Counted from the stretch's first letter, positions 23,468-49,161 are shown. The stretch is DNA of 64,000 bases from Candidatus Magasanikbacteria bacterium GW2011_GWC2_37_14 (GCA_000990355.1 LBSX01000004.1:1757-65756), one strand, 5' to 3'. The notes: generated by a model from the letters alone, not told the origin. Program-made: numbers and translations.

Positions 23468-23530
23468 GTTATGTTCAGCATGACAATGAATAATTCATTT
23501 GCCTGTGGTACTGTGTGGCTAAGATGGTTT

Positions 23531-27575: not shown

Positions 27576-27697
27576 TGTCATGCTGAATTTATTTCAGCAT
27601 CTTTTCGTTAAATAATTACACTAAGTAAATATAATCTTAAGAAAGATCCTGAAACCCTTCGGCATGAGCTCAGGTCGAATGCAAGTTCAGGATGACA
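27576..27697. mobile_element. MITE-like element, family 1 (copy E, long variant)
   Basis: TGTCATGCTGAATTTATTTCAGCATC, then AAGTAAATATAATCTTAAGAAAGATCCTGAAAC...CTCAGGTCGAATGCAAGTTCAGGATGACA. The ATG of the downstream ORF is the terminal ATGACA. Confidence 0.75.
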
Positions 27698-31215: not shown

Positions 31216-31329
31216 TGTCATGCCTAACTAGTCTGTCATGCTGAATTTATTTCAGCATCTCTCTTAATATTAAAAAGATCCTGAAACCTTTCGGCGTGAG
31301 CTCAGGTCGAATGCAAGTTCAGGATGACA
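31216..31329. mobile_element. MITE-like element, family 1 (copy F, long variant with duplicated left terminus)
   Basis: TGTCATGCC...TGTCATGCTGAATTTATTTCAGCATC...GATCCTGAAACCTTTCGGCGTGAGCTCAGGTCGAATGCAAGTTCAGGATGACA. Confidence 0.75.
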
Positions 31330-32295: not shown

Positions 32296-32296
32296 C

Positions 32297-32354
32297 TGTC
32301 ATCCTGAATTTATTTCAGGATCCCTTGGGATTCTGAAACGAGTTCAGAATGACA
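32297..32354. mobile_element. MITE-like element, family 1 (minimal copy G, CCTGAA/CCTGAA variant)
   Basis: TGTCATCCTGAATTTATTTCAGGATCCCTTGGGATTCTGAAACGAGTTCAGAATGACA. Confidence 0.7.
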
Positions 32355-33128: not shown

Positions 33129-34086
33129 CAATTTAAAAGAAATTACTAATTTGTTAGAATGGCAAAATTTTTTAGACAAAGCTGAACGCCAGCATTGTTT
33201 TTTTTCTGTTGTTTGGGAAAAGCAAGTGGAAAATTATTTTTCTGATTGGCAGTTTAAACATTTTTTATTCAAAGATAATTTTTTAGTTAGTGTTTTGGTG
33301 AATAAAGAAGGTAGAGCAGTGAGTGTGCCTTTTTCAGAAGTAGGTAACATTATTGCTTTAGATTATAGTCAAGAGCTTGATACAAATGATCTAAAAATCG
33401 TTTTAGCAAATATTTTTAACAGTTTTAAATTAACAGTCAACATTTTTTATTGCCCTGTAAAAAACATAGAAGAAACAATGTTGATAGATTATGTTTTGCC
33501 TTTAAACAAATTTAATTCTTTGGAAGAATTAGAAAACAACTATCGCAAAACTACACGTCAAGAAATTGAAAAGTCCAAAGTAGAAATAAAAGTAATGGAA
33601 AACATCAAAGAACTCAAACAAGTTTATAAATTATATTTAAAAAATATTCGGGCAAAAATGAATTTAGTTTTGCCATATAGTTTTTTTGAGTATTGGTTCC
33701 AAAACAAAGAAACTTTTTTGTTATCGCTGATGAACGGTAAAATTGTTGGTTTTTCGCTGTATTTAGAAAATAAAAATCTTACTCATTATTTTTTAAATGC
33801 TTCTAGTCTTGTAGGTAAACAAAGTGGCGCTACGCATGCACTTTTAAGTAGTCAAATTAAAAATAGTTTTAATAAACAAATAAAGTATTTTGAATTTGGC
33901 GGTACTAAAAAAGATTCAAATTTAGAAATATTTAAAAAGGGTTGGGGTGGAGAAGTTTATAATATTTATACTATTAGTAATCAAGAATTTGTAAACATCA
34001 AATCAAAAGGTCGTACTTTATGGAAATTCGTGCCGTTGTGTTTGTTACCGTATCTAAGTAAAATTTTGTGGAAGAGATTTTTATAA
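33085..34086 (+). CDS. FemAB-like / GNAT-fold acyltransferase family protein (tentative)
   Basis: About 330-aa two-lobed architecture common in glycan loci. C-terminal GWGGEVY. Overlaps the upstream gene, so the start is uncertain. Confidence 0.3.
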   Translation: MSLRMAKKFMENINNNLKEITNLLEWQNFLDKAERQHCFFSVVWEKQVENYFSDWQFKHFLFKDNFLVSVLVNKEGRAVSVPFSEVGNIIALDYSQELDTNDLKIVLANIFNSFKLTVNIFYCPVKNIEETMLIDYVLPLNKFNSLEELENNYRKTTRQEIEKSKVEIKVMENIKELKQVYKLYLKNIRAKMNLVLPYSFFEYWFQNKETFLLSLMNGKIVGFSLYLENKNLTHYFLNASSLVGKQSGATHALLSSQIKNSFNKQIKYFEFGGTKKDSNLEIFKKGWGGEVYNIYTISNQEFVNIKSKGRTLWKFVPLCLLPYLSKILWKRFL

Positions 34087-34087
34087 T

Positions 34088-35920
34088 ATGAAAATATTAA
34101 TGCCAGTTTTACATTATCATCCAATTATTGGTGGTTTTGAAATTTTTATAAAAAATATTTGTGATCGGCTTAAAGACAAGGCTGAAATTTTTGTGGTAAC
34201 TGGAAAAGTAAATAATCAGCCAGCTTTTGAGCAAAGTGCAGGTTTAAGAATTTATCGCAACGCTTCGTTGTTTACTTTAAAAGATTATTCTTATAGTTCT
34301 TATTGGTATATTTTTACCATGTTACCAATTTTATTTATTAAATCTTGGTCGTTAATCAAAAAAGAAAAAATTGAATTACTCCATGCCCAAGGTTATTTTA
34401 GTGGAATTATTTGTTTATTACTAAAAAAATTAACTGGCGTGCCTTATCTTATTACTATTCAATCAGCCGATTTTACAGTTTATCATTCCGAAGTAAAAGC
34501 AAATTTTATTGTCCGTTGGCAAGATAAACTAGAAAAAAAGGTTTACCGCGAAGCGAGTATTTGCCATGCTGTAAGTAATGATTTAGTAAAACATTTTGCC
34601 AATCAAGGTCGGACCGACGCGATAATGATTCCGAATGGTGTAGAAACCGACATTTTTAAACCAATTATATGGCAAGAAAAAAATAAAATAAGAAATGAAA
34701 TTGGTATCCGAGAAAAATTTGTAATTAGTTGTGTTTCGCGACTGCAAGAGAAAAATGGTACTCATGATTTAATTTCGGCAATTGCTTTGCTAAAAAAAGA
34801 GGGAATTGCTGTAGAATGCTGGATAATTGGTGACGGTCAAGAACGAGCTAGGCTAGAAAAATTAGTTGGTGAATTAAATATTAAAGATAATATAAAATTT
34901 TTGGGTCAAATTTTACACGAAGATGCAGGAAAATTGGTGGCAGCCACCGATTTGTTTGTGCGTCCTTCTTTGGCTGAAGGCTTTGGTATTGTTTATTTGG
35001 AGGCCTTTGCCTGTGGCGTGCCAGCAATTGGCACTCCGGTTGGAGGAATTCCAGACTTTATTGTTGAAGGGGAGACTGGTTTAATTTGTCAAGTTGCCAA
35101 CCCCAAAGATTTAGCAGAAAAAATAAAATTACTAATAAGTAATGAAGAATTAAGAAATAAAATTATTGCCAATAGTTTTAAATTGATAAAAGAAAAATAC
35201 AGTTGGGACAAGATTGCCGAAAAAATTCATAATCTTTATTTAGAAAATAATCAAAAAAATGATCAAATAAAAAAATGGGTCTCTGAATTTAGAGTTAGAA
35301 ATAATTGGGATTCGGCCAAACAAAGAAAAGTTCAAGAAAAAGAAGCAAAATATATTTATAATTTTTTTAAAAAAATAGCTTTACCAAATAAAAATATTTT
35401 AGAAATTGGCAGTGGCAATGGTTATTTAGGTGCTTATTTAATTGAGTTGTTTTCTAAAAATGAAAAAATAAAGTATACTTTTTCTGATCTTATTCCTGAA
35501 TGTGTGGAATTGTGTAAAAAAAATACTGTATTATTAAAGAATGATAATATATTTTACAAAGTATTAGATGTTTATAACCCGGGAAATATTTCTGGTTATA
35601 ATATAATAATTTCCACGGGCTATGCGTCGGCAGCAACTTACAAAGAAGCAGTGCCAATTTTAGCAAAAAATATCCAAAGTGGGGCATATTTAATTTGTGA
35701 TTTTGTTAATCATTTTTCAATATTTGTTTTTTTTCAGCACCCTTACAATAGATTAAAACAATTTATTAAATATCTACTAAAGAAATCAGACAAGAAAAAT
35801 TATCATTTTGGAAAATTAGGTATAAAAAATTATTTTGGTGTTTATGATTTAAAATTAGTAAAGATAAATAGTTTAAGGTTTAGAAGAAATCCGTTTATAG
35901 CAGTTTTTAAAAAAATATGA
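34088..35920 (+). CDS. GT4 glycosyltransferase fused to C-terminal class I SAM-methyltransferase-like domain
   Basis: GT4 motif EGFGIVYLEAFACGVPAIGTPVGGIPDFI (residues ~290-330). C-terminal motif I LEIGSGNGYLG. Confidence 0.65.
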   Translation: MKILMPVLHYHPIIGGFEIFIKNICDRLKDKAEIFVVTGKVNNQPAFEQSAGLRIYRNASLFTLKDYSYSSYWYIFTMLPILFIKSWSLIKKEKIELLHAQGYFSGIICLLLKKLTGVPYLITIQSADFTVYHSEVKANFIVRWQDKLEKKVYREASICHAVSNDLVKHFANQGRTDAIMIPNGVETDIFKPIIWQEKNKIRNEIGIREKFVISCVSRLQEKNGTHDLISAIALLKKEGIAVECWIIGDGQERARLEKLVGELNIKDNIKFLGQILHEDAGKLVAATDLFVRPSLAEGFGIVYLEAFACGVPAIGTPVGGIPDFIVEGETGLICQVANPKDLAEKIKLLISNEELRNKIIANSFKLIKEKYSWDKIAEKIHNLYLENNQKNDQIKKWVSEFRVRNNWDSAKQRKVQEKEAKYIYNFFKKIALPNKNILEIGSGNGYLGAYLIELFSKNEKIKYTFSDLIPECVELCKKNTVLLKNDNIFYKVLDVYNPGNISGYNIIISTGYASAATYKEAVPILAKNIQSGAYLICDFVNHFSIFVFFQHPYNRLKQFIKYLLKKSDKKNYHFGKLGIKNYFGVYDLKLVKINSLRFRRNPFIAVFKKI

Positions 35921-37110
35921 AAATATTAATTACCACAGGAATTTATCCACCAGACATTGGTGGGCCAGCTCGAATGATAGAAAAAATGGCTGAAGAATTA
36001 AGCAATAACAATTTTAAAATTGAAATTTTGACTTTTGGTGACGAGGGATTGGTGGAAAATGGAAAATACAAAGTTTTTAAAGTTTCTAAGAAAAAATCAA
36101 AAATAAGTCAAAAAATAAAGTATGCTTTTTGGCTTTTTCGTTTGGCAAAAAAAAGTGACTTAATTTATACTTTTGATTTGTATACTGCTGGTTTTTTTTC
36201 TTGGTTAATCGGCAAAATTATTTTAAGAAAAAAATTGGTTGTTCGTTTTGCTGGAGATAGCGCTTGGGAAATAGCTAATAACCGTGGTTATACCAGTGAT
36301 GATATTCTTAATTTTCAAAATAAATTTTATGGGATTTACATTGCAGTTATAAAAAAATTTAGAAATTTGATTTTGCGAGGCGCCGATAAAGTTGTTTGTG
36401 TAAGTGAATTTATGGGTGATTTGGCAGAAAAAATTGGAGTAGCAAAAAATAAAATTGAGGTTATATATAATTCTGTGGAGTTTTTAGATTTTTCTAATAA
36501 ATCTAAAAATAATTTAATATCAGAATTAGATTTGCCTACAGAATCAAAAATAATTGTTACTGCCGGACGTTTGGTTCCTTGGAAAGGCGTCGCTGGTTTG
36601 ATAAAATCATTAAAAATTATTAAAAATACTCCAATTGGAAAAAATTTAAAATTATTAGTAATTGGAGATGGTCCGGAATTAGAAAATTTAAAAAAATTAG
36701 CTGGAGAAGAAGGAGTGTTGGAATCGGTTCATTTTACAGGTTTAATTTCCTTAAATAAGGTAATTGAGTATTATAAATTAGCTGATGTTTTTGTTTTAAA
36801 TTCTAATTATGAAGGATTATCGCATACTTTGTTGGAAGTTTTAAGTTTAGGGATACCGGTAGTGGCTAGTAATGTTGGTGGTAATCCCGAACTGGTTGAG
36901 AATAACAAAAATGGTGTTCTGATTTCCTACAATGATCTCTCGGCAATATCCTCGGCAATTGTGAGAATTTTGACCGAAGAAAAATGGAAAAGTGACGAAT
37001 ATAAAAAAGAGTGTGCTAAGATTTTAGAAAAATTTACTTGGAAAAATAATATTGAAAAAACCATTAATCTTTTAAAAAATATTTACCATGAGCAAAGTAC
37101 TTTTAATTAA
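35917..37110 (+). CDS. GT4 glycosyltransferase
   Basis: EGLSHTLLEVLSLGIPVVASNVGGNPELV. Confidence 0.7.
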   Translation: MKILITTGIYPPDIGGPARMIEKMAEELSNNNFKIEILTFGDEGLVENGKYKVFKVSKKKSKISQKIKYAFWLFRLAKKSDLIYTFDLYTAGFFSWLIGKIILRKKLVVRFAGDSAWEIANNRGYTSDDILNFQNKFYGIYIAVIKKFRNLILRGADKVVCVSEFMGDLAEKIGVAKNKIEVIYNSVEFLDFSNKSKNNLISELDLPTESKIIVTAGRLVPWKGVAGLIKSLKIIKNTPIGKNLKLLVIGDGPELENLKKLAGEEGVLESVHFTGLISLNKVIEYYKLADVFVLNSNYEGLSHTLLEVLSLGIPVVASNVGGNPELVENNKNGVLISYNDLSAISSAIVRILTEEKWKSDEYKKECAKILEKFTWKNNIEKTINLLKNIYHEQSTFN

Positions 37111-38533
37111 TCCACCATTTAATATTGCCAAAGAAAACTACGACAGTTCATTATCTGTTGGTCTTTTGAGTATTGCTTCATATTTGGATAGCAAAGGAAT
37201 AGATGTAAAAATAGTTGATGGTGTTAGAGAAGCAGACTACCGAGAAAAAATAATCAAAGAAGCTAAAAATTGTAGTTATGCGGGAATTTCGTTAATGACT
37301 ACCCAGCTTTCCGAAGCTTTAAAAATTTCTCAGTTAATTAAAACCACTAATAAAAATTGTCAGATTGTTTGGGGCGGTCCACATCCTACTTTTTTTATGG
37401 AACAATGCGCCCTATCACCATTGGTAGACGTAGTTTGTGTGGGGGAGGGTGAGGAATCTTTTTACGAAGTAGTTAGCGGTCAGGAATTATCTCAAATTCG
37501 GGGAATTTTATTTAGAAAAGAAGATAAGTTGAGAGGTAATCCTAATCGCCCTTTGCACAATCCAGCCCAAATGCCCTTGTTTAATTGGGATTTAATTGAT
37601 AACCAAGTTCTCAAAGAATTATCTTTTATTCCTTCTTTAACTTCGCGTGGTTGTCCGCATATTTGTACTTTTTGTATCAATGCTATTTTAAAATTAAGTT
37701 GGCGGCCAAGAACAGCGGAACAGGTAATTGAGGATTTAAAAATAATAAAAAGTAAAGAATATTTTAAAGATAAAAAATTGCGGTTTTGGGATGAAAATTT
37801 TTTTGTTAACATCGAGAGAGCCAAAAAAATTATTAATGGCATGTTAGAAAATAATTTAATTTTTCCTTGGGAAACAACCGTGCGTGCCAACTATCTTAAA
37901 GAGGGCATGGTTGATGATGAATTTTTAGAAAAATTAAAACAATCTGGTTGTTATCTTTTGGCCTTTGGTGCCGAATCCGGCTGTCCTAGGATTTTGAAAA
38001 AAATAAAAAAGAATATCAATCCTGAGGACATAATTAATTCTGCCAAAATGTGTCTTAAACATGGGATTATTCCCCAGTATTCTTTTATGATCGGTTTGCC
38101 TGGAGAAGAAAAGCACGAGATGATGGAGACTTTAAAAGTTATTGACCAGCTTTTAAAATTAAGTGATAAAGTAGAGATTTTGGGGCCCCAAGCATTTCGT
38201 CCTTATCCTGGTTCAGAATTGTATGACGAATGTGTGGCCGCTGGTTGGCGGGCGCCACAAACTTTGGATGAATGGGTTCATTTGGTTGAAAATGAATTAA
38301 ATTATTTAACCGTACAGAATTTCCCTTGGGTAAAAGAAAAAGATTTTGTGGAATCAATGGAAGCTTATGTGCGTTTTGGTGCTCATACTGTTAAAAATGC
38401 CATGGCTTCTAGTATCAAGGCTCCTAAACTTCTAAAATTAGGTTTTGTTTTACTCTGTAAATTACGTTGGAAATTAAAGTTTTTTTATTTTCCAATTGAA
38501 TTTAAAATAGCTAAAAAGTTTGTCACCAAATAA
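37088..38533 (+). CDS. B12-binding domain radical SAM enzyme (class B)
   Basis: N-terminal cobalamin-binding-like Rossmann region. CxxxCxxC cluster motif SRGCPHICTFC. Confidence 0.7.
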   Translation: MSKVLLINPPFNIAKENYDSSLSVGLLSIASYLDSKGIDVKIVDGVREADYREKIIKEAKNCSYAGISLMTTQLSEALKISQLIKTTNKNCQIVWGGPHPTFFMEQCALSPLVDVVCVGEGEESFYEVVSGQELSQIRGILFRKEDKLRGNPNRPLHNPAQMPLFNWDLIDNQVLKELSFIPSLTSRGCPHICTFCINAILKLSWRPRTAEQVIEDLKIIKSKEYFKDKKLRFWDENFFVNIERAKKIINGMLENNLIFPWETTVRANYLKEGMVDDEFLEKLKQSGCYLLAFGAESGCPRILKKIKKNINPEDIINSAKMCLKHGIIPQYSFMIGLPGEEKHEMMETLKVIDQLLKLSDKVEILGPQAFRPYPGSELYDECVAAGWRAPQTLDEWVHLVENELNYLTVQNFPWVKEKDFVESMEAYVRFGAHTVKNAMASSIKAPKLLKLGFVLLCKLRWKLKFFYFPIEFKIAKKFVTK

Positions 38534-38535
38534 CT

Positions 38536-39615
38536 ATGAGAATTTTGAGTTTAAGTTTGGATAGAAATTTATTTGATTCTCAATCCGCAGTTGCCGAAAG
38601 AACATTGTCTTATGGCAGTTTAGTAAATTTATACCATGTCATAGTGCAAGACAAGAAAGATAATGTCTTAAATTTGTCAGAACAAGTTATAGTTTTTGGC
38701 AGTGGGGGATCAAACAAAATCTGGCGTTTTTTTAAGATTTACCATTTAGTTTGTGATTTGTCAAAAAAATTTAAATATGATATTATTACGACTCAAGATC
38801 AGTATTATTTGGGCTTTTTAGCCTTAATTTTAAGTAAAAAATTAAGGTTAGGTCTAGAAGTGCAAGTTCATGGTTGGGATAATTTTTGGGGATTAAGGTA
38901 TTTATTGGCTAGAATTGTCTTGCCTCGAGCTAAAACTATTAGAACTGTAGGTGAAAGATCAAGTAAAAAATTAGTTGGTTTGGGAATTTCAAATCAAAAA
39001 ATAGTAGTTGTGCCAATATTTACAGATTATCTAAATTTTTTAGTTGCTAACAAGCAAAAAAGTAATAGCGAAAAATTTGTTTTTTTAACAGTTGGTCGTT
39101 TGGTAAAAGTAAAAAATATTCAGCAACAAATTTTGTGTTTTGCCCAGTTGTCTAAACAATTTAGGAATATAGAACTACGAATAGTAGGAGACGGGCCAGA
39201 GAGAAATAAATTAGAAAAAATCGTTGCAAATTTAAATTTAAAAGATAAAATTTTATTTACTGGTTGGTTGAATGGTAATGAATTAAATAGGGAATACGAA
39301 AATGCTAATTGTTTTTTACTTACTTCAAAGAATGAGGGTTGGGGATTGGTAATAGTAGAAGCAGCCAATTATTCTTTGCCAATAATAATGACCGATGTTG
39401 GTTGTGCTGGCGAATTTATAAAGGATGGGGAAAATGGTTTGGTAATAGAAATAAACAATAATGAATTATTGCTAAAAAAGATGAAAGAAATTTTAGAAAA
39501 CAAAGATTTAGCCTTTAAATTGGGGCAAGCTGCCCAACATTCGGTAGTAACGATGCCTAGTAAAGAAGAAACTTTAGCTTTATATAAAAAATCTTGGGTC
39601 CGGGCTTTAAAATAA
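38536..39615 (+). CDS. GT4 glycosyltransferase
   Basis: EGWGLVIVEAANYSLPIIMTDVGCAGEFI. Confidence 0.7.
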   Translation: MRILSLSLDRNLFDSQSAVAERTLSYGSLVNLYHVIVQDKKDNVLNLSEQVIVFGSGGSNKIWRFFKIYHLVCDLSKKFKYDIITTQDQYYLGFLALILSKKLRLGLEVQVHGWDNFWGLRYLLARIVLPRAKTIRTVGERSSKKLVGLGISNQKIVVVPIFTDYLNFLVANKQKSNSEKFVFLTVGRLVKVKNIQQQILCFAQLSKQFRNIELRIVGDGPERNKLEKIVANLNLKDKILFTGWLNGNELNREYENANCFLLTSKNEGWGLVIVEAANYSLPIIMTDVGCAGEFIKDGENGLVIEINNNELLLKKMKEILENKDLAFKLGQAAQHSVVTMPSKEETLALYKKSWVRALK

Positions 39616-42038
39616 TTATGTTAGTTAAATATAGTAAAAAAATATATTTAAGCGTAATTTTAATAGTAATTGCAGTTTTTGGTTGTTTGTTAGTTTTTTT
39701 AAATTCTTTGCCAATGACAGCCAAGGCCAAAGTGCTTAATACTTTTCCTCTATTATATAGAGCTTCGGAATTAACAAAATTTTTTGACTTTTTTTATTTA
39801 CCAATGACTATTGGGGAGTCTAAGACCGAAAAATGGAATTTGATTATAAAACAAAAAAATTTGGATCAATTAGACTCAAGTTTGCCAAAAGATTTTTTAC
39901 ACGAACAACCGGGGTCTGGTTTTAAAGATGAAGTAAAAGCCAAATTGTATATTGGCAATGAAGAATATGATGTAAATGTACGCTATCGCGGGGCCACCCC
40001 ATCTCATTGGGCTTGGGCCAAAAAATCTTGGTCAATTAATTTTGATAAAGATAAATCATATAAGGGTATAGACAAGATTAATTTAATTGAGCCAAAAGAT
40101 CGGCATTTCTTTATTGAAGCTCTCAATAATTATCGTGCCAAAAAATTAGGTTTAGTGGTGCCACATTATGATTTTATTAATTTATCTATTAATGGGCAGA
40201 ATCAGTCATTTTATTATTTATCCGAACAGCTTTCTGCTACCATGTTGGCAAAAAACAATAAACCCGACTCTTCAAATATCTATGGTGATTCAACCGAAGA
40301 TAACTATCTTTATCAAGATCCAGCTGTTTGGAAGAAGTTGAGTGGAGGAGAAACAGATGATCGGTCGGATCTAAGTGCTTATTTAACTTTTTTTCAAAAT
40401 AAAGATCGAGATTCTTTGTTGAATTTAACTTCCAGAAATAATCTTATTTCTTGGTCAGCTTTAAATTTATTGGCCGGTTCTCGGCATCAAAATAATGGTA
40501 ATAATGTTAAAATATTTTTTAATAATTCTGTTGGTCGGTTTGAATGGATTCCCGATGATGTGGCTTTGTTTGAATTAACTGGTGATATTAATCAGACTGA
40601 TAATGATTTAATTGATTATATTTTTACAGATAATTCTTTAAGACAACAAAGGGATGACTTGCTTAAGAATTATTTAAATAATGAAGATAATCTAAAAGAT
40701 GATTTAAATTATTTGGCTGGTTTGTATAAACAATACAAAGCAGATGTTTATTCCGACAATTTTAAGAGATATGGCAATGTAATGTTTAGTTTGGAGTATT
40801 GGAACTATCGCGATATGTTGGAAGATAATGTGGAGAAGCTAAAAGAAATTTTAACAAAAACTACCTATGAAAAAGAAACTGTTCAAGGTCCGGTAGCATC
40901 TCTAGATGATAAGTATGTAAAAAATAATCAGATTCTAAATCATTTTTTTGAAATTACTGATGTAGAAAAATTTAAAAATCAAAACAAAATGTTTCTGGTA
41001 AACGAAAAGAATAAAGAGATTATTTTACCAGCTGGATTGTATAGCTTTTATAGTACTGTTGTTATACCCAAAGGTTTTACTTTAAAAATAAATGCTGGGG
41101 TGACGGTTTTAATGTCTCCGGGGGTTTCTTTAGTAAGTTATAGTCGGGTAATAGCAGAGGGAAGTATTTCCGCACCAATAGCTTTCAAGAGACTGAATTC
41201 TTTAAAGCCCTGGGGAAGTTTCGCTGTTTTGGTAGAAGGGGGAGCAAATAGTTTGTTTGATTATTGTGATTTTTCTGGTGGTAAAGATGACACTATTAAT
41301 GGTGCTTTTGTTTCGGGAATGTTGAATATTTATTCATCGGGGGCAGAAATAAAAAATTGTTCATTTAGTAATGCCACTGGAGATGATTCTTTAAATATCA
41401 AAAATGGTTATGGTTATTTGGAGAATAATATTTTTAAAAACAATATCTCTGATGCTATAGATTTTGATTGGGGGACTGGTGCAGTGCTGAGTAATAAATT
41501 TTATGGTAATGGCAATGATGCTATAGATTTGGGAGGCTGTAATGGAGTGTTAGTCAAGGATAATTTGGTATTTAATTCTGGTGATAAATGTGTTAGTATT
41601 GGTGAAGAATCATTAAATATTAAATTGTTTAATAATTTGTTTTCCCATTGCAATATTGGCGTAGCGGTAAAGGATAAATCTGTTGCCCAGGCAGCCAATA
41701 ATATTTTTTGTGCTAACAAAACCGGGATTGCCGCCTATATGAAAAAGGATATCTTTGGCGGATCAGAATTTGAAGTTTATAATTCAATAATTTGGGGTGG
41801 AGAAAAAATGGTGGATATTGATGAACTTTCCAAAGTTAAAATTTTGTACAGTGACGTGGCTGGCGGTTATAGTGGAAAGGGGAACATTACCACAGATCCA
41901 AAATTGGATGTCAGTTGTCATGTTTTGTCAACCGACAGTAATTTTTCAACAGGTGGTGAAGTAAAATATTTAGAAAATTTTGATATTTTAAAAGTCGATA
42001 AAACTCCGATTGGTTTGTTTAATCCTGCTATTTATTAA
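39594..42038 (+). CDS. CotH kinase-like domain protein with C-terminal right-handed parallel beta-helix repeats
   Basis: N-terminal TM. CotH signature VRYRGATPSHWAWAKKSWSINFDKDKSYKGIDKINLIEP. C-terminal beta-helix repeats (NATGDDSLNIKNG..., NISDAIDFDWGTG..., GNDAIDLGGCNG...). Confidence 0.6.
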   Translation: MGPGFKIIMLVKYSKKIYLSVILIVIAVFGCLLVFLNSLPMTAKAKVLNTFPLLYRASELTKFFDFFYLPMTIGESKTEKWNLIIKQKNLDQLDSSLPKDFLHEQPGSGFKDEVKAKLYIGNEEYDVNVRYRGATPSHWAWAKKSWSINFDKDKSYKGIDKINLIEPKDRHFFIEALNNYRAKKLGLVVPHYDFINLSINGQNQSFYYLSEQLSATMLAKNNKPDSSNIYGDSTEDNYLYQDPAVWKKLSGGETDDRSDLSAYLTFFQNKDRDSLLNLTSRNNLISWSALNLLAGSRHQNNGNNVKIFFNNSVGRFEWIPDDVALFELTGDINQTDNDLIDYIFTDNSLRQQRDDLLKNYLNNEDNLKDDLNYLAGLYKQYKADVYSDNFKRYGNVMFSLEYWNYRDMLEDNVEKLKEILTKTTYEKETVQGPVASLDDKYVKNNQILNHFFEITDVEKFKNQNKMFLVNEKNKEIILPAGLYSFYSTVVIPKGFTLKINAGVTVLMSPGVSLVSYSRVIAEGSISAPIAFKRLNSLKPWGSFAVLVEGGANSLFDYCDFSGGKDDTINGAFVSGMLNIYSSGAEIKNCSFSNATGDDSLNIKNGYGYLENNIFKNNISDAIDFDWGTGAVLSNKFYGNGNDAIDLGGCNGVLVKDNLVFNSGDKCVSIGEESLNIKLFNNLFSHCNIGVAVKDKSVAQAANNIFCANKTGIAAYMKKDIFGGSEFEVYNSIIWGGEKMVDIDELSKVKILYSDVAGGYSGKGNITTDPKLDVSCHVLSTDSNFSTGGEVKYLENFDILKVDKTPIGLFNPAIY

Positions 42039-42044
42039 AGATCT

Positions 42045-42860
42045 ATGGGTTATAATGTTCATTTTCAAAGGTTTGAATTTAAATATATTATTACTTTGGC
42101 TCAAGAGAAGGAAATTATGGAACGAATTGGTAAGTATTTGTGTCCTGACAGTTATGTTAAAGAATCCAAAACTGGCTATGAAGTTAGAAGTCTGTATTAT
42201 GATAGCCCACAGTTTTTTTATTATGACGAAAAAAATGATGGCGTTGGTTTAAGAAAAAAGATACGTTTGCGTTGTTATGGAGTTGATGAAGAATCAAGAA
42301 ACAATGTTTTTTTTGAAATTAAACGTAAGAATGATGCCGTAGTAATTAAAGATAGATTTTTGCTTTCTCGAGATGAATACAACAAATTGATCAGTTTTGA
42401 CGATTTATTGTTTGAAGAATTAAAAAAAGATTCTCATAGGGCCAATGTTATTGAGGAGTTTAGGTGTGAGAGGGGTTTACGTAGTATTGCCCCCAAGGTT
42501 TTAGTGGTGTATGATAGAATTCCTTTTTTGGATAGATACAACCCTTCTTTTAGAATTACCTTTGATAAGAATATAAGAGCTGCCAAGACTGATGATTTAT
42601 TTTGTGATAATAAGGATTTGTTGGATGTTTTTCCCGATGGGGTAGTTATGGAAATAAAATTTAATGGTACGATGCCATTTTATATAAGGGGAATAATAGA
42701 ATTTTTTGATTTACAGCGAACTTCTTTTTCCAAATATTGTACAGCTGTGGATACTTGTGGTGCCAATTCAGCTTTTATCTTTCCTTATCAAAATAGATTA
42801 AATAACAATTTAAATTTTTATTCATTTAACCAATCTTTCTATGACGGATTTAATTCTTAG
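42045..42860 (+). CDS. VTC-domain (polyphosphate-polymerase-like) protein
   Basis: YEVRSLYYDSP...GLRKKIRLRCYG, typical of the bacterial VTC domain. Confidence 0.5.
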   Translation: MGYNVHFQRFEFKYIITLAQEKEIMERIGKYLCPDSYVKESKTGYEVRSLYYDSPQFFYYDEKNDGVGLRKKIRLRCYGVDEESRNNVFFEIKRKNDAVVIKDRFLLSRDEYNKLISFDDLLFEELKKDSHRANVIEEFRCERGLRSIAPKVLVVYDRIPFLDRYNPSFRITFDKNIRAAKTDDLFCDNKDLLDVFPDGVVMEIKFNGTMPFYIRGIIEFFDLQRTSFSKYCTAVDTCGANSAFIFPYQNRLNNNLNFYSFNQSFYDGFNS

Positions 42861-43515
42861 TGGGGGGAGTCAGGTGACCTTGTATGCAGTAATATTGAAT
42901 TTGTTACTGACTTTTGTTTTGGTGTCCTTTGTTTGTTTTCTTTACAAAAAAACGCATAGTGGGGTTTCTTATTCTCAAACTTTTGTCTTTACTTTAATAA
43001 TTGTTGGTATTGTGGGAGCAATGGTGATGATGGTGGTTGGTAGTAATATTGCTACAGCTTTTGGACTTTTAGGGGCTTTTTCAATTATTAGATTTCGGAC
43101 ACCAATGAAAGATAGTAAAGATGCTGGTTACATATTTTTTGTTTTGGCAGTGGGAGTAGCCATTGGTACTAGTAATTATGCTATTGGTGTTATTGGTACT
43201 TTTTTGTTATCGGCGATAATTTGGTTTTTACATAGAATTAATTTTGGTTCTATAAAAAAATATGATTATTTATTGGTTTTTACCAGTACTAACGGCAGTT
43301 CTTCCAACAAATATGAAAGTATACTTAAGAAATATTTAAAATCTAGTTTGTTATTGAATATTTCGTCTAAAAAAGATGGTGAAGAAAGTGAAATTACTTA
43401 TCATATTACTTTCTTGGACAAAAATACCCCAGATAGCTTTATGCAAGAAATGTCTCATGCCGAAGGAGTCAAGAACGTGCATTTAGTTACTTCTTGGGAT
43501 AATGTGGAATACTAA
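42841..43515 (+). CDS. DUF4956-like small membrane protein (partner of VTC/CotH)
   Basis: Three to four TM helices, IIRFRTPMKDSKDAGYIFF. Conserved neighbourhood with the VTC domain. Confidence 0.45.
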   Translation: MTDLILSGGSQVTLYAVILNLLLTFVLVSFVCFLYKKTHSGVSYSQTFVFTLIIVGIVGAMVMMVVGSNIATAFGLLGAFSIIRFRTPMKDSKDAGYIFFVLAVGVAIGTSNYAIGVIGTFLLSAIIWFLHRINFGSIKKYDYLLVFTSTNGSSSNKYESILKKYLKSSLLLNISSKKDGEESEITYHITFLDKNTPDSFMQEMSHAEGVKNVHLVTSWDNVEY

Positions 43516-43530
43516 TTTAACCCCAAAACA

Positions 43531-44148
43531 ATGTCATTATTAAAACCCAGTTTATTTTTCATTCTTCTTAAAAGATTACAAAAAAAGAGTTTTTTGTATG
43601 AATTTTATTTTAAAAATAAGCAGACTCTTGATATTGGTTGTGGGGAAGGTGAATTTCTTAATAATGACCCAGAGAATATCTATGGGGTAGATCTTAACAA
43701 GACAGCTATCGGGAGACTTTTGAACAAAGGCTGTAAAGTGAAGCTGGGGGATATAACCAAACTGGATTACGAAAGTAATTATTTTGAGGCAGTTCATTGT
43801 TCCAATGTTATTGAACACCTGAATGTGGAGGAGGCACTACAAATGATAAAAGAAGGAGCTAGGGTCTTAAAAAAGGCCGGTATTTTTGTCTTGGCCTCAG
43901 AAATGCCCACTCGTTTTTTTTTGGACACCTTTGGACATATTAAGCCCTATCCGCCAAAGGCCATAAAAAAATTACTTCGGGAAAATAGTTATGAAGCTTT
44001 TGAAGGAGTAGATAATCTGGAGTATCTAACTGAATTTTATATTGGTAATTATCATAAAAATCCAATTTTGTATGCATGTTCTTTTATTTTAGGTTTTTAC
44101 CTGCCATTTTTTAGGAGAGAGTATTTTGTGATTTTAAGAAAAAAATAA
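43531..44148 (+). CDS. class I SAM-dependent methyltransferase
   Basis: Motif I LDIGCGEGEFL, post-I DLN, motif II-like AVHCSNVIEHL. Confidence 0.65.
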   Translation: MSLLKPSLFFILLKRLQKKSFLYEFYFKNKQTLDIGCGEGEFLNNDPENIYGVDLNKTAIGRLLNKGCKVKLGDITKLDYESNYFEAVHCSNVIEHLNVEEALQMIKEGARVLKKAGIFVLASEMPTRFFLDTFGHIKPYPPKAIKKLLRENSYEAFEGVDNLEYLTEFYIGNYHKNPILYACSFILGFYLPFFRREYFVILRKK

Positions 44149-44163
44149 TTATTTTTTAGTTGG

Positions 44164-45252
44164 TTGGATATGAATTTACTGTTAATTACTCAGAAAATTG
44201 ATAAAGATGATCCAATTTTAGGTTTTTTTCATCGTTGGGTTGAAGAATTTGCCAAACATTGTAAAAAAATAACGGTGATTTGTTTACAAAAAGGCGAATA
44301 TAACTTACCAGATAATGTAAAAGTGTTAAGTCTTGGTAAACCAGCCCAAGGCTGGCCAGCCTTGGGCTGGGAAAAGTATTTGGGAAAATTGAAAGCGTTG
44401 GTAAATTTTTACAAATACATCTGGCAGGAACGAAAAAATTATGATTCAGTATTTGTGCACATGAATCATTTTTACGTTATTTTAGGTGGTTTGTTGTGGA
44501 AATTGTTGGGAAAAAAAGTTGGCTTGTGGTATGCTCATGGGCATGTACCACCAACGTTAAAATTGGTAGAAAAACTTTCTAATATTATTTTCACCTCTAC
44601 AGTTAGTGGTTTTCGTTTACCAAGTAACAAATTAAAAGTAATTGGCCAAGGCATAGATACTGATTTTTTTATTCCCAATTATAATTTAACAAAACAGAAT
44701 AATGATCTTATTTTAATTAGTGTTGGACGAATTAGCGTAATAAAAAATTATGAAACTATTGTTGAAGCACTTGATGTATTATACAATAAGCAAGGAATAA
44801 CCAAACTTAAGTTGATTTTGGTAGGTGAGGCTAGTGTGGGTGCCGAAGACTATGAAAGAAAAATTAGAGAATTTATTGTAAATAAAAATTTATCAGTCGT
44901 AGTTGATTTTGTTGGTGCTTTGCCCAATTACCAAATAGTTGAATATTTGCAAAAAGCGGATTTATTTTTAAACTCTAGTCTTACTGGTAGTTTGGATAAG
45001 GCGATGGTAGAAGCCATGGCTTGTGCTTTGCCAGTTTTAACCTGTAACGAGTCAATGCAGGAAGTATTAGGTGGTTATCAAGATTTGTTAATGTTCCCCA
45101 AAAAAGACAGTCAAAAATTAGCATCTTTGATAAGTTCTTTTTTAAACAAAAGTTTGGAAGAAAGAATTGAACTTGGTTTGGCGTTGAGACAGCTAGTTGT
45201 AGAAAAACATAATTTAAAAGATTTTATTGTTAAAATTTTATCTCAATACTAA
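44164..45252 (+). CDS. GT4 glycosyltransferase
   Basis: GT4 C-terminal region LTGSLDKAMVEAMACALPVLTCNES. Confidence 0.6.
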   Translation: MDMNLLLITQKIDKDDPILGFFHRWVEEFAKHCKKITVICLQKGEYNLPDNVKVLSLGKPAQGWPALGWEKYLGKLKALVNFYKYIWQERKNYDSVFVHMNHFYVILGGLLWKLLGKKVGLWYAHGHVPPTLKLVEKLSNIIFTSTVSGFRLPSNKLKVIGQGIDTDFFIPNYNLTKQNNDLILISVGRISVIKNYETIVEALDVLYNKQGITKLKLILVGEASVGAEDYERKIREFIVNKNLSVVVDFVGALPNYQIVEYLQKADLFLNSSLTGSLDKAMVEAMACALPVLTCNESMQEVLGGYQDLLMFPKKDSQKLASLISSFLNKSLEERIELGLALRQLVVEKHNLKDFIVKILSQY

Positions 45253-45266
45253 AATTAAATAATATT

Positions 45267-45893
45267 ATGATGACTCCCTGGCGAGAATTATTTTATAAAA
45301 AATTAAAGGGGCTTAAATTGGAAGGTGAAGTTTTGGATATGGGTGGAGCCGTAGACGCCGATTATCATAATTTGTTTCAAAAAAAAGATGGTACTCATAT
45401 TTATGTTTTAGGATTTGATAAAAATTATGGTTATGACATACAAGCTGATCTAGAAAAAGCAACCACTTTGAATAATAATCAATATGATACAGTCCTTTGT
45501 TTTAATCTTTTGGAACATATCTTTAATTATGAGAATGTTTTACAAGAAAGTTATCGAGTACTTAAAATTAATGGTCAATTTTTGTTAGCTGTGCCCTTTT
45601 TGTTTAATTTACATCCTTGTCCAGCGGATTATTGGCGTTTTTCTGGGGATTGTTTAAGAAAAAATTTGGAAAAAACTGGTTATCGCAATATTGAAGTGAT
45701 AGAAATTTATACGGGTTTATTTGAGACCTTATTTCAAATTGCTTATAATTTTTATGGGTTTAATTTTTTAAGATTTGTTTTTAAAAAGATTGCTATCTTT
45801 TTGGATTTACTACTGGGTTTAATTGGCGGAATCAAGTATAAAAATTTAATTAAAAATTATCCCTTGGGTTATTTGGTAAAAGCATACAAATAA
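45267..45893 (+). CDS. class I SAM-dependent methyltransferase
   Basis: VLDMGGAVDADY, FNLLEHIFNYENVLQESYRVLKINGQFLLAVP. Confidence 0.55.
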   Translation: MMTPWRELFYKKLKGLKLEGEVLDMGGAVDADYHNLFQKKDGTHIYVLGFDKNYGYDIQADLEKATTLNNNQYDTVLCFNLLEHIFNYENVLQESYRVLKINGQFLLAVPFLFNLHPCPADYWRFSGDCLRKNLEKTGYRNIEVIEIYTGLFETLFQIAYNFYGFNFLRFVFKKIAIFLDLLLGLIGGIKYKNLIKNYPLGYLVKAYK

Positions 45894-45895
45894 AT

Positions 45896-47563
45896 ATGGG
45901 AAACAGAAAAGTTTTGGTGGCTATTAACGATTTAAACTTTGGCGGAGCACAAAAATTGGCTGTTGAACAAGCCAATCGTTTGTTTGTTTTGGGTTACAAA
46001 GTATCATTCTTAATTTTTTTTGATAACCGAGAACAGAGTTTTGAAAAAAAAATATTGTCGGGAATTAATATCTATAAAATTAAAAATTCTAAGTTTAATT
46101 TTATAACATTTTTTAGGTGTTTTAAATTCATTTATAAAAATAGATTTGATTTAATTTTTACTCATTTATTCTTTTCTAATACTTTGGTTAGAGCTGTTTC
46201 AATATTTTTGTGGAGAAAACCGTTTATTATTTCCTATGAACACAACGTGTATACTGGACAGAAAAGTTCACTCTCTCTACAAATAGATTACTTTTTATCT
46301 AGTCGTTCTGATTTAATAATTGCCGTCTCTGAGGAGGTTAAAAATTATTTGATTGAGAAAAGGATTAATTCGAAAAAGATATTATTGGTTAACAATGGTA
46401 TTAACTTGTTAGAACCAAAAAATTTAGTTAATTTAAAAAGAAAAGAATTAAATATTAGCAATGATAAATTTATAATTGTTTCGGTTGGCAATGTTGATTA
46501 TCAAAAAGGTCATGATATTTTGGTTGAGGCAGCAAATTTAATTATTAAAAAATTTCCCAATTGTATTTTTTTGGTTTGTGGAAATGATAGTAATAAGGTT
46601 ATGGTGGATAAGATAAAAGCCAAGATAGTTAAATATGGATTAGAGAATGAATTCAAATTACTAGGTAATAGAGCTGATGTAGAAGAAATTGTGGAAGCTG
46701 CTGATATTTTTGTGATGCCTTCTCGATTTGAAGGATTGAGCATTGCTCTGCTTGAAGCCATGTCACTTAAAAAAGCTATTGTCGTATCGGACATAGACAG
46801 TATGAAAAATATTTTGACCAATGGCAATAATGGTATATTTTTTTCTACCGAAGATCCTGTTGATTTAGCAGAAAAAATAATTGGCTTAGTTCCTGATTCT
46901 ATTTTGAGAGAAAAGTTGGGTAGAGTAGCCTATTCAACGGTTCAAAATTATTCAATTGAAAATAATGTTATTAATATAATTAAGGCTGTTGAATCATTAA
47001 AAAAAAGGAAACATTATTTTTTTAATAAGTATAATTTGAATCATCAAAAATCACTTAAGTGGACAGAGAGGTCCAAAGAAGCATTGGAGTTGTTTAAAAA
47101 TATAAATTTTACAAACAAAATTATAAAAATTGCTGACTTGGGTTGTGGTGATAAAAAATTATTTGAATTAATTAATAAACTTAAAAATTTGGAATTTACA
47201 TATAAAGGTTTTGATATAATGCCACAAGCCGATGATGTAGAAAAAATAAATTTGTCTGAAAACGTTATTAATGAAGAGTTTGACGTTGTTTTTTGTCTTG
47301 GATTAATTGAATATTTAAAAAATATTGATTTTTTCTTTGCAAATTTAGTAAAAATATCTAACTATGTTATATTGAGTTGTGTAGTTAGTGATTATGCTGA
47401 TTATAATGAAAAAGTAATTCGTAGAAAAGGTTGGGAAAATTATTTATCTGTTAAACAATTAGAGATGTTAATTAAAAAATACGGTTTTGAGATTATTAAA
47501 AGTAAAATGATTGATAACGGAGTAACTTATCTGTGTATTTTAAAAAAGATAGAAACTAAATAA
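45896..47563 (+). CDS. GT4 glycosyltransferase fused to C-terminal SAM-methyltransferase-like domain
   Basis: N-terminal GT4 (MPSRFEGLSIALLEAMSLKKAIVVSDIDSM). C-terminal IADLGCGDKKLFE...FDVVFCLGLIEYL. Confidence 0.6.
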   Translation: MGNRKVLVAINDLNFGGAQKLAVEQANRLFVLGYKVSFLIFFDNREQSFEKKILSGINIYKIKNSKFNFITFFRCFKFIYKNRFDLIFTHLFFSNTLVRAVSIFLWRKPFIISYEHNVYTGQKSSLSLQIDYFLSSRSDLIIAVSEEVKNYLIEKRINSKKILLVNNGINLLEPKNLVNLKRKELNISNDKFIIVSVGNVDYQKGHDILVEAANLIIKKFPNCIFLVCGNDSNKVMVDKIKAKIVKYGLENEFKLLGNRADVEEIVEAADIFVMPSRFEGLSIALLEAMSLKKAIVVSDIDSMKNILTNGNNGIFFSTEDPVDLAEKIIGLVPDSILREKLGRVAYSTVQNYSIENNVINIIKAVESLKKRKHYFFNKYNLNHQKSLKWTERSKEALELFKNINFTNKIIKIADLGCGDKKLFELINKLKNLEFTYKGFDIMPQADDVEKINLSENVINEEFDVVFCLGLIEYLKNIDFFFANLVKISNYVILSCVVSDYADYNEKVIRRKGWENYLSVKQLEMLIKKYGFEIIKSKMIDNGVTYLCILKKIETK

Positions 47564-47566
47564 AAT

Positions 47567-48607
47567 ATGAATTATTCTGTTCTCACACCTTATTTAATAC
47601 CCAAAGAGTTAGAGGGTTATAAAATACAAAATATTGGCGATGGTTTTATTTTATTGGCCATTAAAAATATTCTAGAACCATTTAATGCTCTTTTTGAATT
47701 TTCAAGCAGAAAAATTTTGGTTCAAGAAGACTTTGACAAAATTAATTCTACTAAGGCTTTAATTGTAGCGGGTGCTAATCCGTTAAATGATGAATATACG
47801 ATAAGCCCTAGTTTGAATTTAGAATCATTAAAAAAAATTAAAGTACCAATTATTTTTTTAGGAGTAGGTTACAGTGGTCTTGATTCGTTAAATTTAAAAA
47901 TGACGAATTTAACAAAAAATATTCTTTTGCAAGTTCATTCGGGTATTGAATATAGTTCGTGGCGTTGCCCAATTACCGTAAGATATTTAGAAGCTAATAT
48001 TCCAGAAATAAAATCAAAATTTTTGATGACTGGTTGCCCTGTTATTTACGGAGAAAAACTTTTGTCGGGACAGCCATTTACTGATAACCCAGAGAGAATA
48101 GCCGTCACGATTACCGAGCGTGGTAATTGGTGGGGTAGAGAGAAGAAGACTATAGATTTTGTAGCGAATAAGTTTAAAGGTAAAGAATTATTTCTAGTAT
48201 TGCATCAGGATTTTACTAAGAAAAAATTAAAAACTAAGATTAAAGATTTGTTAAAATTAAATCCACCTGCCAGACTAATTCACTGGTATGCCCAATGTAA
48301 GGGTTTTAAAATAATTAAGCCAGTTTCGGTAGAAATTTGCCAACACTTTTATGACTCTTGTGATTTGCATATTGGTAGCAGGTTACATGCTCACTTGTAT
48401 TGTTTAAGCAATTGTTCCAAATCATTTTTAACCTATGTTGATGGAAGGGCTACAGGTTTTTCGGAATATTTAGGTTTTCCTGCTGTGGATGTTGATAATA
48501 TAGAATCATTTTTAGATTATGATTTTGAAATTTACAGAACTAATGTTTTAAAACATTATAAAAATATGAATTTTTTTATTAATTATCTAAAAGAAAAGAT
48601 TTTATGA
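47567..48607 (+). CDS. hypothetical protein (possibly polysaccharide pyruvyl-transferase-like)
   Basis: Size and locus context only. Confidence 0.25.
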   Translation: MNYSVLTPYLIPKELEGYKIQNIGDGFILLAIKNILEPFNALFEFSSRKILVQEDFDKINSTKALIVAGANPLNDEYTISPSLNLESLKKIKVPIIFLGVGYSGLDSLNLKMTNLTKNILLQVHSGIEYSSWRCPITVRYLEANIPEIKSKFLMTGCPVIYGEKLLSGQPFTDNPERIAVTITERGNWWGREKKTIDFVANKFKGKELFLVLHQDFTKKKLKTKIKDLLKLNPPARLIHWYAQCKGFKIIKPVSVEICQHFYDSCDLHIGSRLHAHLYCLSNCSKSFLTYVDGRATGFSEYLGFPAVDVDNIESFLDYDFEIYRTNVLKHYKNMNFFINYLKEKIL

Positions 48608-49161
48608 GCCCAAAAGTTTTTAAGTGTTTTGAAAAAATTATTCAAAATTATTATGAGCAAAAGTCAAAACCGTTAAGCGTAATTGAGCTTGGCGCTTATT
48701 ACTGGAGTTTGCTTAAAATTGATACTTTTGCTAATTCTCGCAAAGTGGCTTTTAATCTCTCTTTTACTGATGGTGACAAATTAGCTCTAAAAGATTATGA
48801 AATAGTCGAAGGTAATATAAATAATTTACCATTTAAAGACAATGAACTTGATTGCATTTTATCCTGTTCGGTATTTGAACATGACAAATATTTTTGGAAG
48901 TCGTTTGCTGAAATAAATAGAGTAATTAAAATTGGTGGTTTGTTGGTTATAGGAGTACCAGTTTATGTTTCTCTAAAAACTGATTGTTTAAATACAACTT
49001 TAACTTATCACCGCCATGGAAAAAATTATAATGCTGATTTTTATCGATTTAGCGAACAGGCAGTTAGAGAAGTATTTTTTGAAGGATATAAAATAGTCGC
49101 CACTCAATTAGTGCGAAGATATCCCAATCCTTATTTGATAATGGCGGGTATAAAACTCTAA
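48604..49161 (+). CDS. SAM-dependent methyltransferase (type 11-like)
   Basis: LSCSVFEHDKYFWKSFAEINRVIKIGGLLVIGVP. Confidence 0.5.
   Translation: MSPKVFKCFEKIIQNYYEQKSKPLSVIELGAYYWSLLKIDTFANSRKVAFNLSFTDGDKLALKDYEIVEGNINNLPFKDNELDCILSCSVFEHDKYFWKSFAEINRVIKIGGLLVIGVPVYVSLKTDCLNTTLTYHRHGKNYNADFYRFSEQAVREVFFEGYKIVATQLVRRYPNPYLIMAGIKL

Follow-up and report, generated by a model that had tools for sequence, protein, structure and literature searches.

A CotH-VTC-DUF4956 gene trio in a glycan locus of a candidate phyla radiation bacterium: a possible polyphosphate synthase-exporter serving an external phosphotransferase

Introduction

Kinase-like enzymes that bacteria export have no obvious phosphoryl donor outside the cell, which raises the question of how such an enzyme could be supplied. 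We address this question for a locus in a stretch of 64,000 nucleotides from Candidatus Magasanikbacteria bacterium GW2011_GWC2_37_14 (GCA_000990355.1 LBSX01000004.1:1757-65756), an uncultivated groundwater member of the candidate phyla radiation (CPR, Patescibacteria). In this stretch (hereafter the window, with positions counted from its first letter), three consecutive genes (US42_C0004G0032-34) encode a CotH-like protein fused to a beta-helix, a VTC-type triphosphate tunnel protein, and a DUF4956 membrane protein, and they lie among genes for glycan synthesis. We tentatively propose, with confidence somewhat short of even, that this trio is a polyphosphate (polyP) synthase-exporter that supplies an external, glycan-directed phosphotransferase.

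The trio has already been published as an accessory set of Pel exopolysaccharide loci, in 2020 and again in 2025. Whitfield et al. (2020; PMC7112168) described an accessory group of cotH, a 'polyphosphate polymerase', DUF4956, and DUF4832 genes that is contiguous with pelDEADAFG in streptococci and clostridia, the fourth accessory gene of bifidobacterial Pel loci being a diguanylate cyclase or phosphodiesterase (DGC/PDE) gene instead of DUF4832. In a 2025 mBio paper (PMC12345266), the Streptococcus intermedius trio SIR_1594-1592 was deleted gene by gene: loss of SIR_1592 (DUF4956) or SIR_1594 (CotH) halved aggregation in sputum medium, and the two losses shifted Pel levels in opposite directions. 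These authors did not find the trio outside Pel loci. Both papers leave the mechanism open, in agreement with the original prediction made from the window sequence, which had called the module one of no established function, and our literature search found no paper that gives a mechanism for the trio or proposes export. New here are the near-obligate pairing of VTC and DUF4956, the conservation of Vtc4 residues, the predicted inside-membrane-outside topology, an adaptor-like gene next to the pair in other lineages, and the lineage-specific embedding in glycan loci. The window locus itself adds variant features, namely a CPR host, a Wzx/Wzy context, the CotH-beta-helix fusion, and a His-type catalytic loop.

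Results

The trio consists of the following genes:

39618..42038, plus strand: CotH-like/beta-helix fusion protein, 806 amino acids (open reading frame, Pfam CotH and Beta_helix, AlphaFold2 model); an alternative TTG start at 39594 would give 814 amino acids
42045..42860, plus strand: VTC-type triphosphate tunnel protein, stand-alone, 271 amino acids (Pfam VTC)
42841..43515, plus strand: DUF4956/MgtC-like membrane protein, 224 amino acids (Pfam DUF4956)

An open reading frame (ORF) check placed all three genes where the original prediction had put them, on the same strand. Its end for the CotH gene (42038) was retained, and its TTG start at 39594 gave way to the ATG at 39618, which is the likelier start because two of the three public gene calls use it (806 amino acids in the loci that we number L001 and L002) and because CotH homologues align from its methionine. 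This ATG lies 2 nt past the stop codon of the upstream glycosyltransferase gene. The gap between the CotH and VTC genes is 6 nt, and the VTC and DUF4956 genes overlap by 20 nt; the tight spacing that had been taken as translational coupling is thus real, and coupling itself, inferred from this spacing, is plausible. A promoter and terminator scan of the AT-rich trio region was uninformative, and a tRNA scan and Rfam returned nothing useful. The domain identities were borne out by profile searches with PF08757 (CotH), PF09359 (VTC), and PF16316 (DUF4956).

To see how constant the trio is, we collected related loci with two scans: a genome scan with a narrowed VTC alignment, whose patterns reached CPR only, yielded 28 CPR loci, and a metagenome scan with a narrowed alignment of a different, non-CPR VTC clade yielded 80 further loci (L041-L120). 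DUF4956 directly follows VTC in 26 of the 27 evaluable CPR loci, and the two genes are adjacent in 57 of 60 non-CPR loci; no VTC-DUF4956 gene fusion occurs among the matches listed (120 for VTC, 120 for DUF4956). Of the 28 CPR loci, 26 contain a CotH gene inside the 10 kb of sequence available, and in 20 it is the immediate neighbour. This count replaces an initial one with six CotH-less CPR loci, four of which have CotH 6-9 kb away, as partial ORFs and a broader model revealed. The trio is thus conserved as a unit, as predicted, and recurs in other lineages. Since VTC-DUF4956 is near-constant and only 10 of 24 non-CPR loci have CotH within 8 kb, VTC-DUF4956 is the core, a near-obligate pair, and CotH is a frequent, lineage-dependent partner.

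Outside CPR, the trio occurs in a marine lineage, on Bacillota plasmids, and on metagenome contigs of Fibrobacteres-Chlorobi-Bacteroidetes (FCB) type. The marine locus contains glycan genes (CDP-alcohol phosphotransferase, GT2, and GT4), and one Bacillota-type locus adjoins a two-component system and GH44. On plasmid pNP95 of Pseudobutyrivibrio xylanivorans the trio lies in a heteropolysaccharide locus with the same gene order as in the window, and plasmid NZ_CP059541 of Planococcus maritimus (L040) carries it with HEAT and chitin-synthase-like GT2 genes. These loci contradict the claim in the literature that the trio is confined to Pel loci. The L040 layout (4470-12824: TIM-barrel-like hypothetical protein, VTC, DUF4956, CotH, a 689-aa protein, a HEAT-repeat protein, and the chitin-synthase-like GT2) matches that of Clostridium perfringens NELoc-2, which contains VTC, CotH, a HEAT protein, a chitin-synthase-like gene, and a DUF4956 gene misannotated as 'tubulin/FtsZ GTPase'. 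Among the CPR loci, the Parcubacteria metagenome-assembled genome (MAG) SURF_57 has two VTC-DUF4956 pairs on separate contigs (L017 and L021); glycan-type genes surround both pairs, and 6-9 kb downstream of each there is a CotH gene. Three MAGs titled 'uncultured Gammaproteobacteria' (L006, L012, and L026) bear CPR-type VTC, two of them (L006 and L012) together with CPR-type CotH/beta-helix, and these taxonomic labels look doubtful.

The VTC protein resembles the catalytic domain of the eukaryotic VTC complex. Its PF09359 match covers 232 of 235 profile positions (E 6e-40, 137.6 bits against a cut-off of 23), and all matches of the family profile in the PDB at E <= 0.01 are Vtc4, Vtc2, or Vtc3, the yeast Vtc4 catalytic domain (3g3q) being matched at E 6e-16. 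Residues that are invariant across 27 diverse bacterial homologues align with Vtc4 positions, and equivalents of K200, R264, R266, K281, K294, R296, Y359, R361, R373, E426, K428, S457, and K458 are kept. Five of these, K200, R264, R266, E426, and K458, correspond to K13, R74, R76, E203, and K230 of the window protein and are invariant in the 27 homologues; in yeast, the R264A/R266A/E426N triple mutation inactivates VTC, and K458 is the catalytic lysine. An acidic patch sets hydrolytic tunnel enzymes apart from Vtc4. We predict that polymerase activity of the bacterial family is likely but not assured, because, in the sequence alignment, the basic character of Vtc4 is kept at R9 (R196 in Vtc4) and K205 (K428) but an invariant glutamate of the hydrolase acidic-patch type, E11, stands where Vtc4 has T198. 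The window protein contains no SPX domain and no membrane segment, and is predicted to be cytoplasmic because it lacks any hydrophobic segment.

The DUF4956 protein (PF16316, E 6e-16, 59.2 bits against a cut-off of 30.6) has the following parts:

42880..43239, plus strand: five membrane helices (amino acids 14-133; hydropathy, AlphaFold2 model)
42943-42978 and 43087-43113, plus strand: invariant polar/cationic loops YKKTHSGVSYSQ and IRFRTPMKD, respectively, on the predicted cytoplasmic face
43264..43494, plus strand: C-terminal beta-alpha-beta-beta-alpha-beta (ACT-like) domain (amino acids 142-218; AlphaFold2 model)

Its matches to MgtC/SapB models stay below the cut-offs, both in Pfam (PF02308, 25.7 bits against 31.4) and in NCBIfam (PRK09977, E 5e-11, 42.6 bits against 214), which indicates a likeness at superfamily level only. 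The AlphaFold2 model (mean predicted local distance difference test score, pLDDT, 77.5) contains five membrane helices and the C-terminal domain. Invariant residues of the family concentrate in two polar/cationic loops, YKxTHxGxSY and RFRxxxKD, and both probably face the cytoplasm, given the positive-inside rule and the cytoplasmic C-terminal domain of the model. We also considered whether the membrane domain could be a homologue of the Vtc1/Vtc4 channel and found no support for it: Foldseek matched the C-terminal ACT-like domain alone, and weakly (ACT domains, NikR, and the MgtC C-terminal domain 2lqj, all at E > 1e-3).

Hydropathy places the three proteins on different sides of the membrane. 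Among the matches listed, hydrophobic segments are found in 0 of 120 VTC proteins and 120 of 120 DUF4956 proteins, and an N-terminal hydrophobic segment is found in 150 of 152 CotH-like representatives; the predicted layout of the trio is VTC inside, DUF4956 in the membrane, and CotH outside. Non-CPR CotH proteins bear signal peptides, and many bear tails of the type used by the type IX secretion system (T9SS). In 50 of 58 evaluable non-CPR loci and 0 of 28 CPR loci, the gene directly upstream of VTC encodes a protein resembling HlyD/AcrA-type periplasmic adaptors. It has an N-terminal anchor, and three examples come from FCB-type loci:

L036:9222-9998: adaptor-like gene
L037:8942-10000: adaptor-like gene
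L038:8932-9996: adaptor-like gene

The adaptor-like proteins match NCBIfam models at E 2e-10, 2e-7, and 9e-8, all below the curated cut-offs, and their PDB profile matches at E <= 0.1 are exclusively adaptors. HlyD/AcrA-type adaptors partner inner-membrane exporters, and the position of this gene upstream of VTC is therefore independent context evidence that VTC-DUF4956 transports outward.

The CotH-like protein combines an anchor, a kinase-like domain, and a beta-helix, all three present in its AlphaFold2 model (mean pLDDT 75):

39621..39707, plus strand: N-terminal membrane anchor (amino acids 2-30; hydropathy, helix 2-30 in the model), after the cationic MLVKYSKK
39816..40856, plus strand: CotH kinase-like domain (amino acids 67-413; profile against 5jd9, Foldseek)
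40476..40505, plus strand: catalytic-loop motif GSRHQNNGNN (alignment with Bacillus CotH)
40548..40562, plus strand: IPDDV motif (alignment with Bacillus cereus CotH)
40995..41852, plus strand: right-handed beta-helix of polysaccharide-active type (amino acids 460-745; Pfam Beta_helix, model, Foldseek)

Pfam recognises both CotH (PF08757, E 4e-14, 53.2 bits against a cut-off of 23.8) and Beta_helix (PF13229, E 2e-9) in the same protein. The anchor implies that the rest of the protein lies outside the cell. The family profile matches residues 14-356 of the B. cereus CotH chain 5jd9 at E 7e-35, and Foldseek aligns the kinase-like domain with 5jd9/5jda at E 8e-16 and a template-modelling score (TM-score) of 0.79-0.81 on the target. 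An exhaustive search returned about 1,660 CotH relatives (a word-indexed search with full-length CotH gave 7). In 136 of 155 representatives of the clade, and in the window protein (His290), histidine occupies the position of the Bacillus CotH catalytic aspartate (PKA D166 equivalent; B. subtilis D228), and the window loop has no acidic residue; the B. subtilis D228Q mutant is inactive. The metal-binding positions are kept: Asn296 (PKA N171 equivalent) is Asn in 151 of 155 representatives, and Asp315 (PKA D184 equivalent) is Asp in 136 of 155. The KKS and HW motifs are strongly conserved as well. Of the two residues that stack on adenine, the tyrosine (Tyr142 equivalent) is kept in the window protein (SNIYGD), and Asp314 stands for Trp245 of B. 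cereus CotH, a position that is Trp in 120 and Asp in 8 of the 155. We also considered the Asp-to-His change as a mark of all trio-linked CotH proteins, which is ruled out by Bacillota versions with the canonical Asp and Trp. Because of these, the His-type loop is a variant of the CPR and marine CotH clade and no hallmark of the trio.

The original prediction had read carbohydrate binding into the beta-helix, and the fold favours a carbohydrate-related role: Foldseek matches (E 4e-6 to 1e-3) comprise the alginate C5-epimerases AlgG and AlgE4, PL6 lyases, NosD, GH87, RbmB, and phage tailspikes; the NosD match in Pfam is below the cut-off. In CPR loci CotH is mostly fused to this same beta-helix, and in L010 and L023 the two are separate neighbouring genes, which supports a functional link between them. 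Tandem CotH paralogues lie upstream of VTC in L004, L005, L011, L013, and L022, one of them being CotH-only (436-578 aa); the second, usually longer, bears the beta-helix in L004, L005, L011, and L013 (750-967 aa).

Around the trio, the window encodes a heteropolysaccharide locus, which includes the following features (GT4, glycosyltransferase family 4):

27692-29755: Wzy-like protein, flanking the glycan run
29727-31160, minus strand: sixth GT4
31324..49161, plus strand: glycan run, a series of tightly packed genes on one strand that surrounds the trio (Pfam)
32349-33128: polysaccharide deacetylase
37088-38533, plus strand: B12-binding radical SAM enzyme
38536-39615: GT4, upstream of the trio
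43531-44148: methyltransferase, downstream of the trio
44164-45252: GT4, downstream of the methyltransferase
49196-50590, minus strand: second B12-binding radical SAM enzyme
50587-51939, minus strand: Wzx flippase

The predicted placement of the trio between glycosyltransferases is confirmed by Pfam. The run comprises an epimerase/dehydratase, the deacetylase, five GT4s (two of them methyltransferase-fused), the B12-binding radical SAM enzyme, three further methyltransferases, and a pyruvyl transferase. Judged by its gene content, this is a Wzx/Wzy-type heteropolysaccharide locus and not a Pel locus; Pfam found no Pel family among the window neighbours of the trio, and no DUF4832 and no DGC/PDE gene among the genes from 27692 to 53233. 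Across loci, the expected co-occurrence with glycan genes is confirmed for CPR and fails elsewhere: when loci with 5 kb or more of sequence on both sides were screened with one common probe set, glycan neighbours turned up at 19 of 19 CPR loci versus 2 of 24 non-CPR loci. Most of these probes were derived from the CPR window, and their sensitivity may be lower in other phyla. The idea that the trio always sits inside a glycan locus is thereby ruled out. The association is seen where CotH is fused or adjacent to a beta-helix, and in the Bacillota Pel, GT2-synthase, and heteropolysaccharide contexts.

Several details of the glycan genes deserve mention in their own right. The B12-radical SAM family, methyltransferases, and GT4s recur beside VTC-DUF4956 in L012, L015, L017, L020, L021, L025, and Pseudobutyrivibrio pNP95. 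The two GT4s with C-terminal methyltransferase domains (34088-35920 and 45896-47563) suggest coupled sugar transfer and methylation. TPR repeats are fused to the C-terminus of the Wzy/O-antigen-ligase-like membrane protein (27692-29755), and a 333-aa ORF beside the deacetylase (33085-34086) has a sub-threshold match to a phosphatidylglycerol lysyltransferase C-terminal domain (E 0.002).

Discussion

How, then, might an external kinase-like enzyme obtain phosphate? In the mechanism that we propose, the cytoplasmic VTC protein, whose homology and residues are those of a Vtc4-type tunnel enzyme, would polymerise phosphate from a nucleoside triphosphate. It would dock on the MgtC-like DUF4956 protein, whose cationic loops would face inward, and the polyanion would be passed through or along this protein across the membrane; we infer docking and passage from three features: the two genes are obligately paired, the proteins have the topology given above, and non-CPR relatives carry the adaptor-like gene. 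Outside, the polysaccharide-type beta-helix would keep the anchored CotH-like domain on the polymer, and this domain would use the external supply of phosphoanhydride to put phosphate or polyP on the glycan of the Wzx/Wzy locus. For this last step, location and fold are those described above, and substrate and donor are conjectural. The membrane part would be an analogue, not a homologue, of the eukaryotic VTC channel. In its general form, the idea would be that VTC and DUF4956, with the adaptor-like protein outside CPR, are a widespread and unrecognised bacterial polyP synthase-exporter, a third route besides PPK1 and PPK2, a bacterial equivalent of the eukaryotic VTC polymerase-translocase, and the donor for glycan phosphorylation by exported CotH; we regard this wider claim as rather unlikely in full.

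Comparison with known systems shows what is shared and what is particular to the window. With the Pel accessory set, it shares three contiguous families in an exopolysaccharide locus, a predicted secreted CotH, and an MgtC-like membrane protein with an ACT-like C-terminus; it differs in its Wzx/Wzy-type locus, which is not contiguous with pelDEADAFG and has no DUF4832 gene, in its beta-helix-fused CotH (FN3 in Pel) with His for the catalytic Asp, and in its CPR host. The yeast VTC complex couples cytosolic polyP synthesis to membrane transit, and the bacterial pair resembles the eukaryotic complex (Vtc4/Vtc3/Vtc1) in the homologous catalytic tunnel domain with its key residues, in the division into a cytosolic catalytic unit and a membrane partner, and in the idea, proposed here for the bacterial pair, that synthesis is coupled to transit. 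In contrast, the bacterial catalytic domain stands alone as a 271-aa protein that has neither SPX nor fused membrane helices, its partner is a five-helix MgtC-like protein instead of three-helix Vtc subunits, and it has E11 instead of T198. Likeness of DUF4956 to the MgtC/SapB/YhiD family consists of weak sequence matches and of membrane helices with an ACT-like C-terminal domain; the scores fall below curated cut-offs, however, and DUF4956, obligately paired with VTC, forms a Pfam family of its own. The window CotH shares with Bacillus spore-coat CotH (5JD9/5JDA) the fold (TM-score 0.8 on the target), the N171, D184, and Tyr142 equivalents, and the KKS motif, whereas it is membrane-anchored, external, and beta-helix-bearing and has His for D228 and Asp for Trp245. 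Bacillus CotH acts at the spore surface inside the mother cell. CotH is distantly related to Fam20C. The xylose kinase FAM20B and POMK are Fam20C-related, atypical kinase-like enzymes of the secretory pathway that act on glycoconjugate sugars outside the cytosol, with ATP that the Golgi or endoplasmic reticulum imports; their likeness to the window CotH is an analogy only, drawn from their description and not from sequence or fold.

A number of observations weigh against the synthase-exporter proposal. Our literature search found no report of polyP synthesis by any bacterial VTC protein, and the family keeps the hydrolase-type E11. The loss of SIR_1593 (VTC) in S. intermedius had no reported phenotype, unlike the loss of its two partners (PMC12345266). 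The membrane part of DUF4956 has no Foldseek match among solved structures, the Vtc1/Vtc4 membrane subunits included; few basic residues are found in its membrane helices, and the characterised MgtC relatives are regulators, not channels. Both adenine-stacking residues are kept in most CotH relatives, which favours a nucleotide donor over polyP, and the window CotH, with neither the catalytic Asp nor the stacking Trp, could be inactive. The non-CPR relatives, for which an adaptor is invoked, are probably diderm, judging by T9SS-type tails on a subset of their CotH proteins. Finally, a glycan role of the trio is not universal, because outside CPR CotH is linked in 10 of 24 loci and glycan genes in 2 of 24.

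Surface polyP could also itself be the product, an anionic wall or matrix polymer exported by VTC-DUF4956, and the CotH/beta-helix protein a largely non-catalytic, glycan-binding scaffold (a pseudokinase). In this reading, which we consider improbable, the scaffold would hold polyP in place or link it to a glycan that is partly deacetylated and cationic. The His and Asp substitutions in the window CotH and the frequent lack of a linked CotH in non-CPR VTC-DUF4956 loci would fit this reading, as would the reported extracellular polyP of unexplained origin in Bacillus; yet the strong retention of His (136 of 155), Asn (151 of 155), Asp (136 of 155), and the KKS/HW motifs would be unusual in a dead enzyme, and the CotH proteins of Bacillota trios keep the complete canonical catalytic set. 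The deacetylase at 32349-33128 also speaks for a bridged glycan, and Pel, the best-known partner polymer, likewise needs a deacetylase (the deacetylase-like domain of PelA). Deacetylated Pel is cationic.

Alternatively, the exported CotH could be a regulatory protein kinase that phosphorylates glycan-assembly or surface proteins with VTC and DUF4956 adjusting the phosphate or energy status, which we think unlikely. Bacillus CotH is indeed a Ser/Thr protein kinase, such a role has already been proposed for the Pel-associated CotH (PMC7112168), the opposite Pel shifts in the S. intermedius mutants look regulatory (PMC12345266), and a two-component system adjoins the trio in the Bacillota-type locus mentioned above. 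However, an extracytoplasmic protein kinase would have no evident ATP supply, the polysaccharide-type beta-helix fused or adjacent to CotH points to a glycan substrate, and the obligate VTC-DUF4956 pairing and the adaptor-like gene would be left unexplained. We give still less credence to a role in phosphate or magnesium homeostasis, in which VTC would be a hydrolytic or cyclising tunnel enzyme with an MgtC-like regulator and its glycan-locus position would carry no mechanistic meaning. Almost the same tunnel centre can belong to a tripolyphosphatase instead of a polymerase, and E11, MgtC effects on ATP synthase and PhoR in Salmonella, and the silent streptococcal VTC knockout (PMC12345266) all agree with it. 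Against it stand the specific closeness of the family to Vtc4 in sequence, the Vtc4-type basic R9 and K205 together with the catalytic K230, the synteny with exported CotH across at least three phylum-level lineages (CPR, Bacillota, and FCB-type), the adaptor-like gene found outside CPR only, and the glycan embedding of CPR loci (with one probe set, 19 of 19 versus 2 of 24 outside CPR).

If the synthase-exporter proposal holds, the VTC-DUF4956 pair would provide a testable answer to the donor question and a PPK-independent route to bacterial polyP. Extracellular bacterial polyP could likewise come from this pair; its origin was left open in a study of B. cereus, which is reported to have no Vtc4 homologue. 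The pair would also be relevant to the evolutionary origin of the eukaryotic VTC complex. CPR bacteria are thought to live attached to host cells, and a phosphate-modified surface glycan could affect this attachment. The comparative data replace the loose label 'phosphate metabolism' with a specific, testable model of export and use, and they identify cultivable carriers of the trio, P. xylanivorans (pNP95) and P. maritimus.

Further features of the window

Elsewhere the window carries ordinary chromosomal genes (RecG, ClpB, and phosphoglucomutase). At 21732-27478, genes for an extracytoplasmic function (ECF) sigma factor and a DUF5667 protein precede a 1,214-aa ORF (23834-27478) for which Pfam gives no match. 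At 58028-61741, a 1,237-aa protein has a lamin-tail domain (LTD) as its sole match, and LTD domains are also present on the CotH proteins of two Bacteroidota-type loci (L036 and L038).

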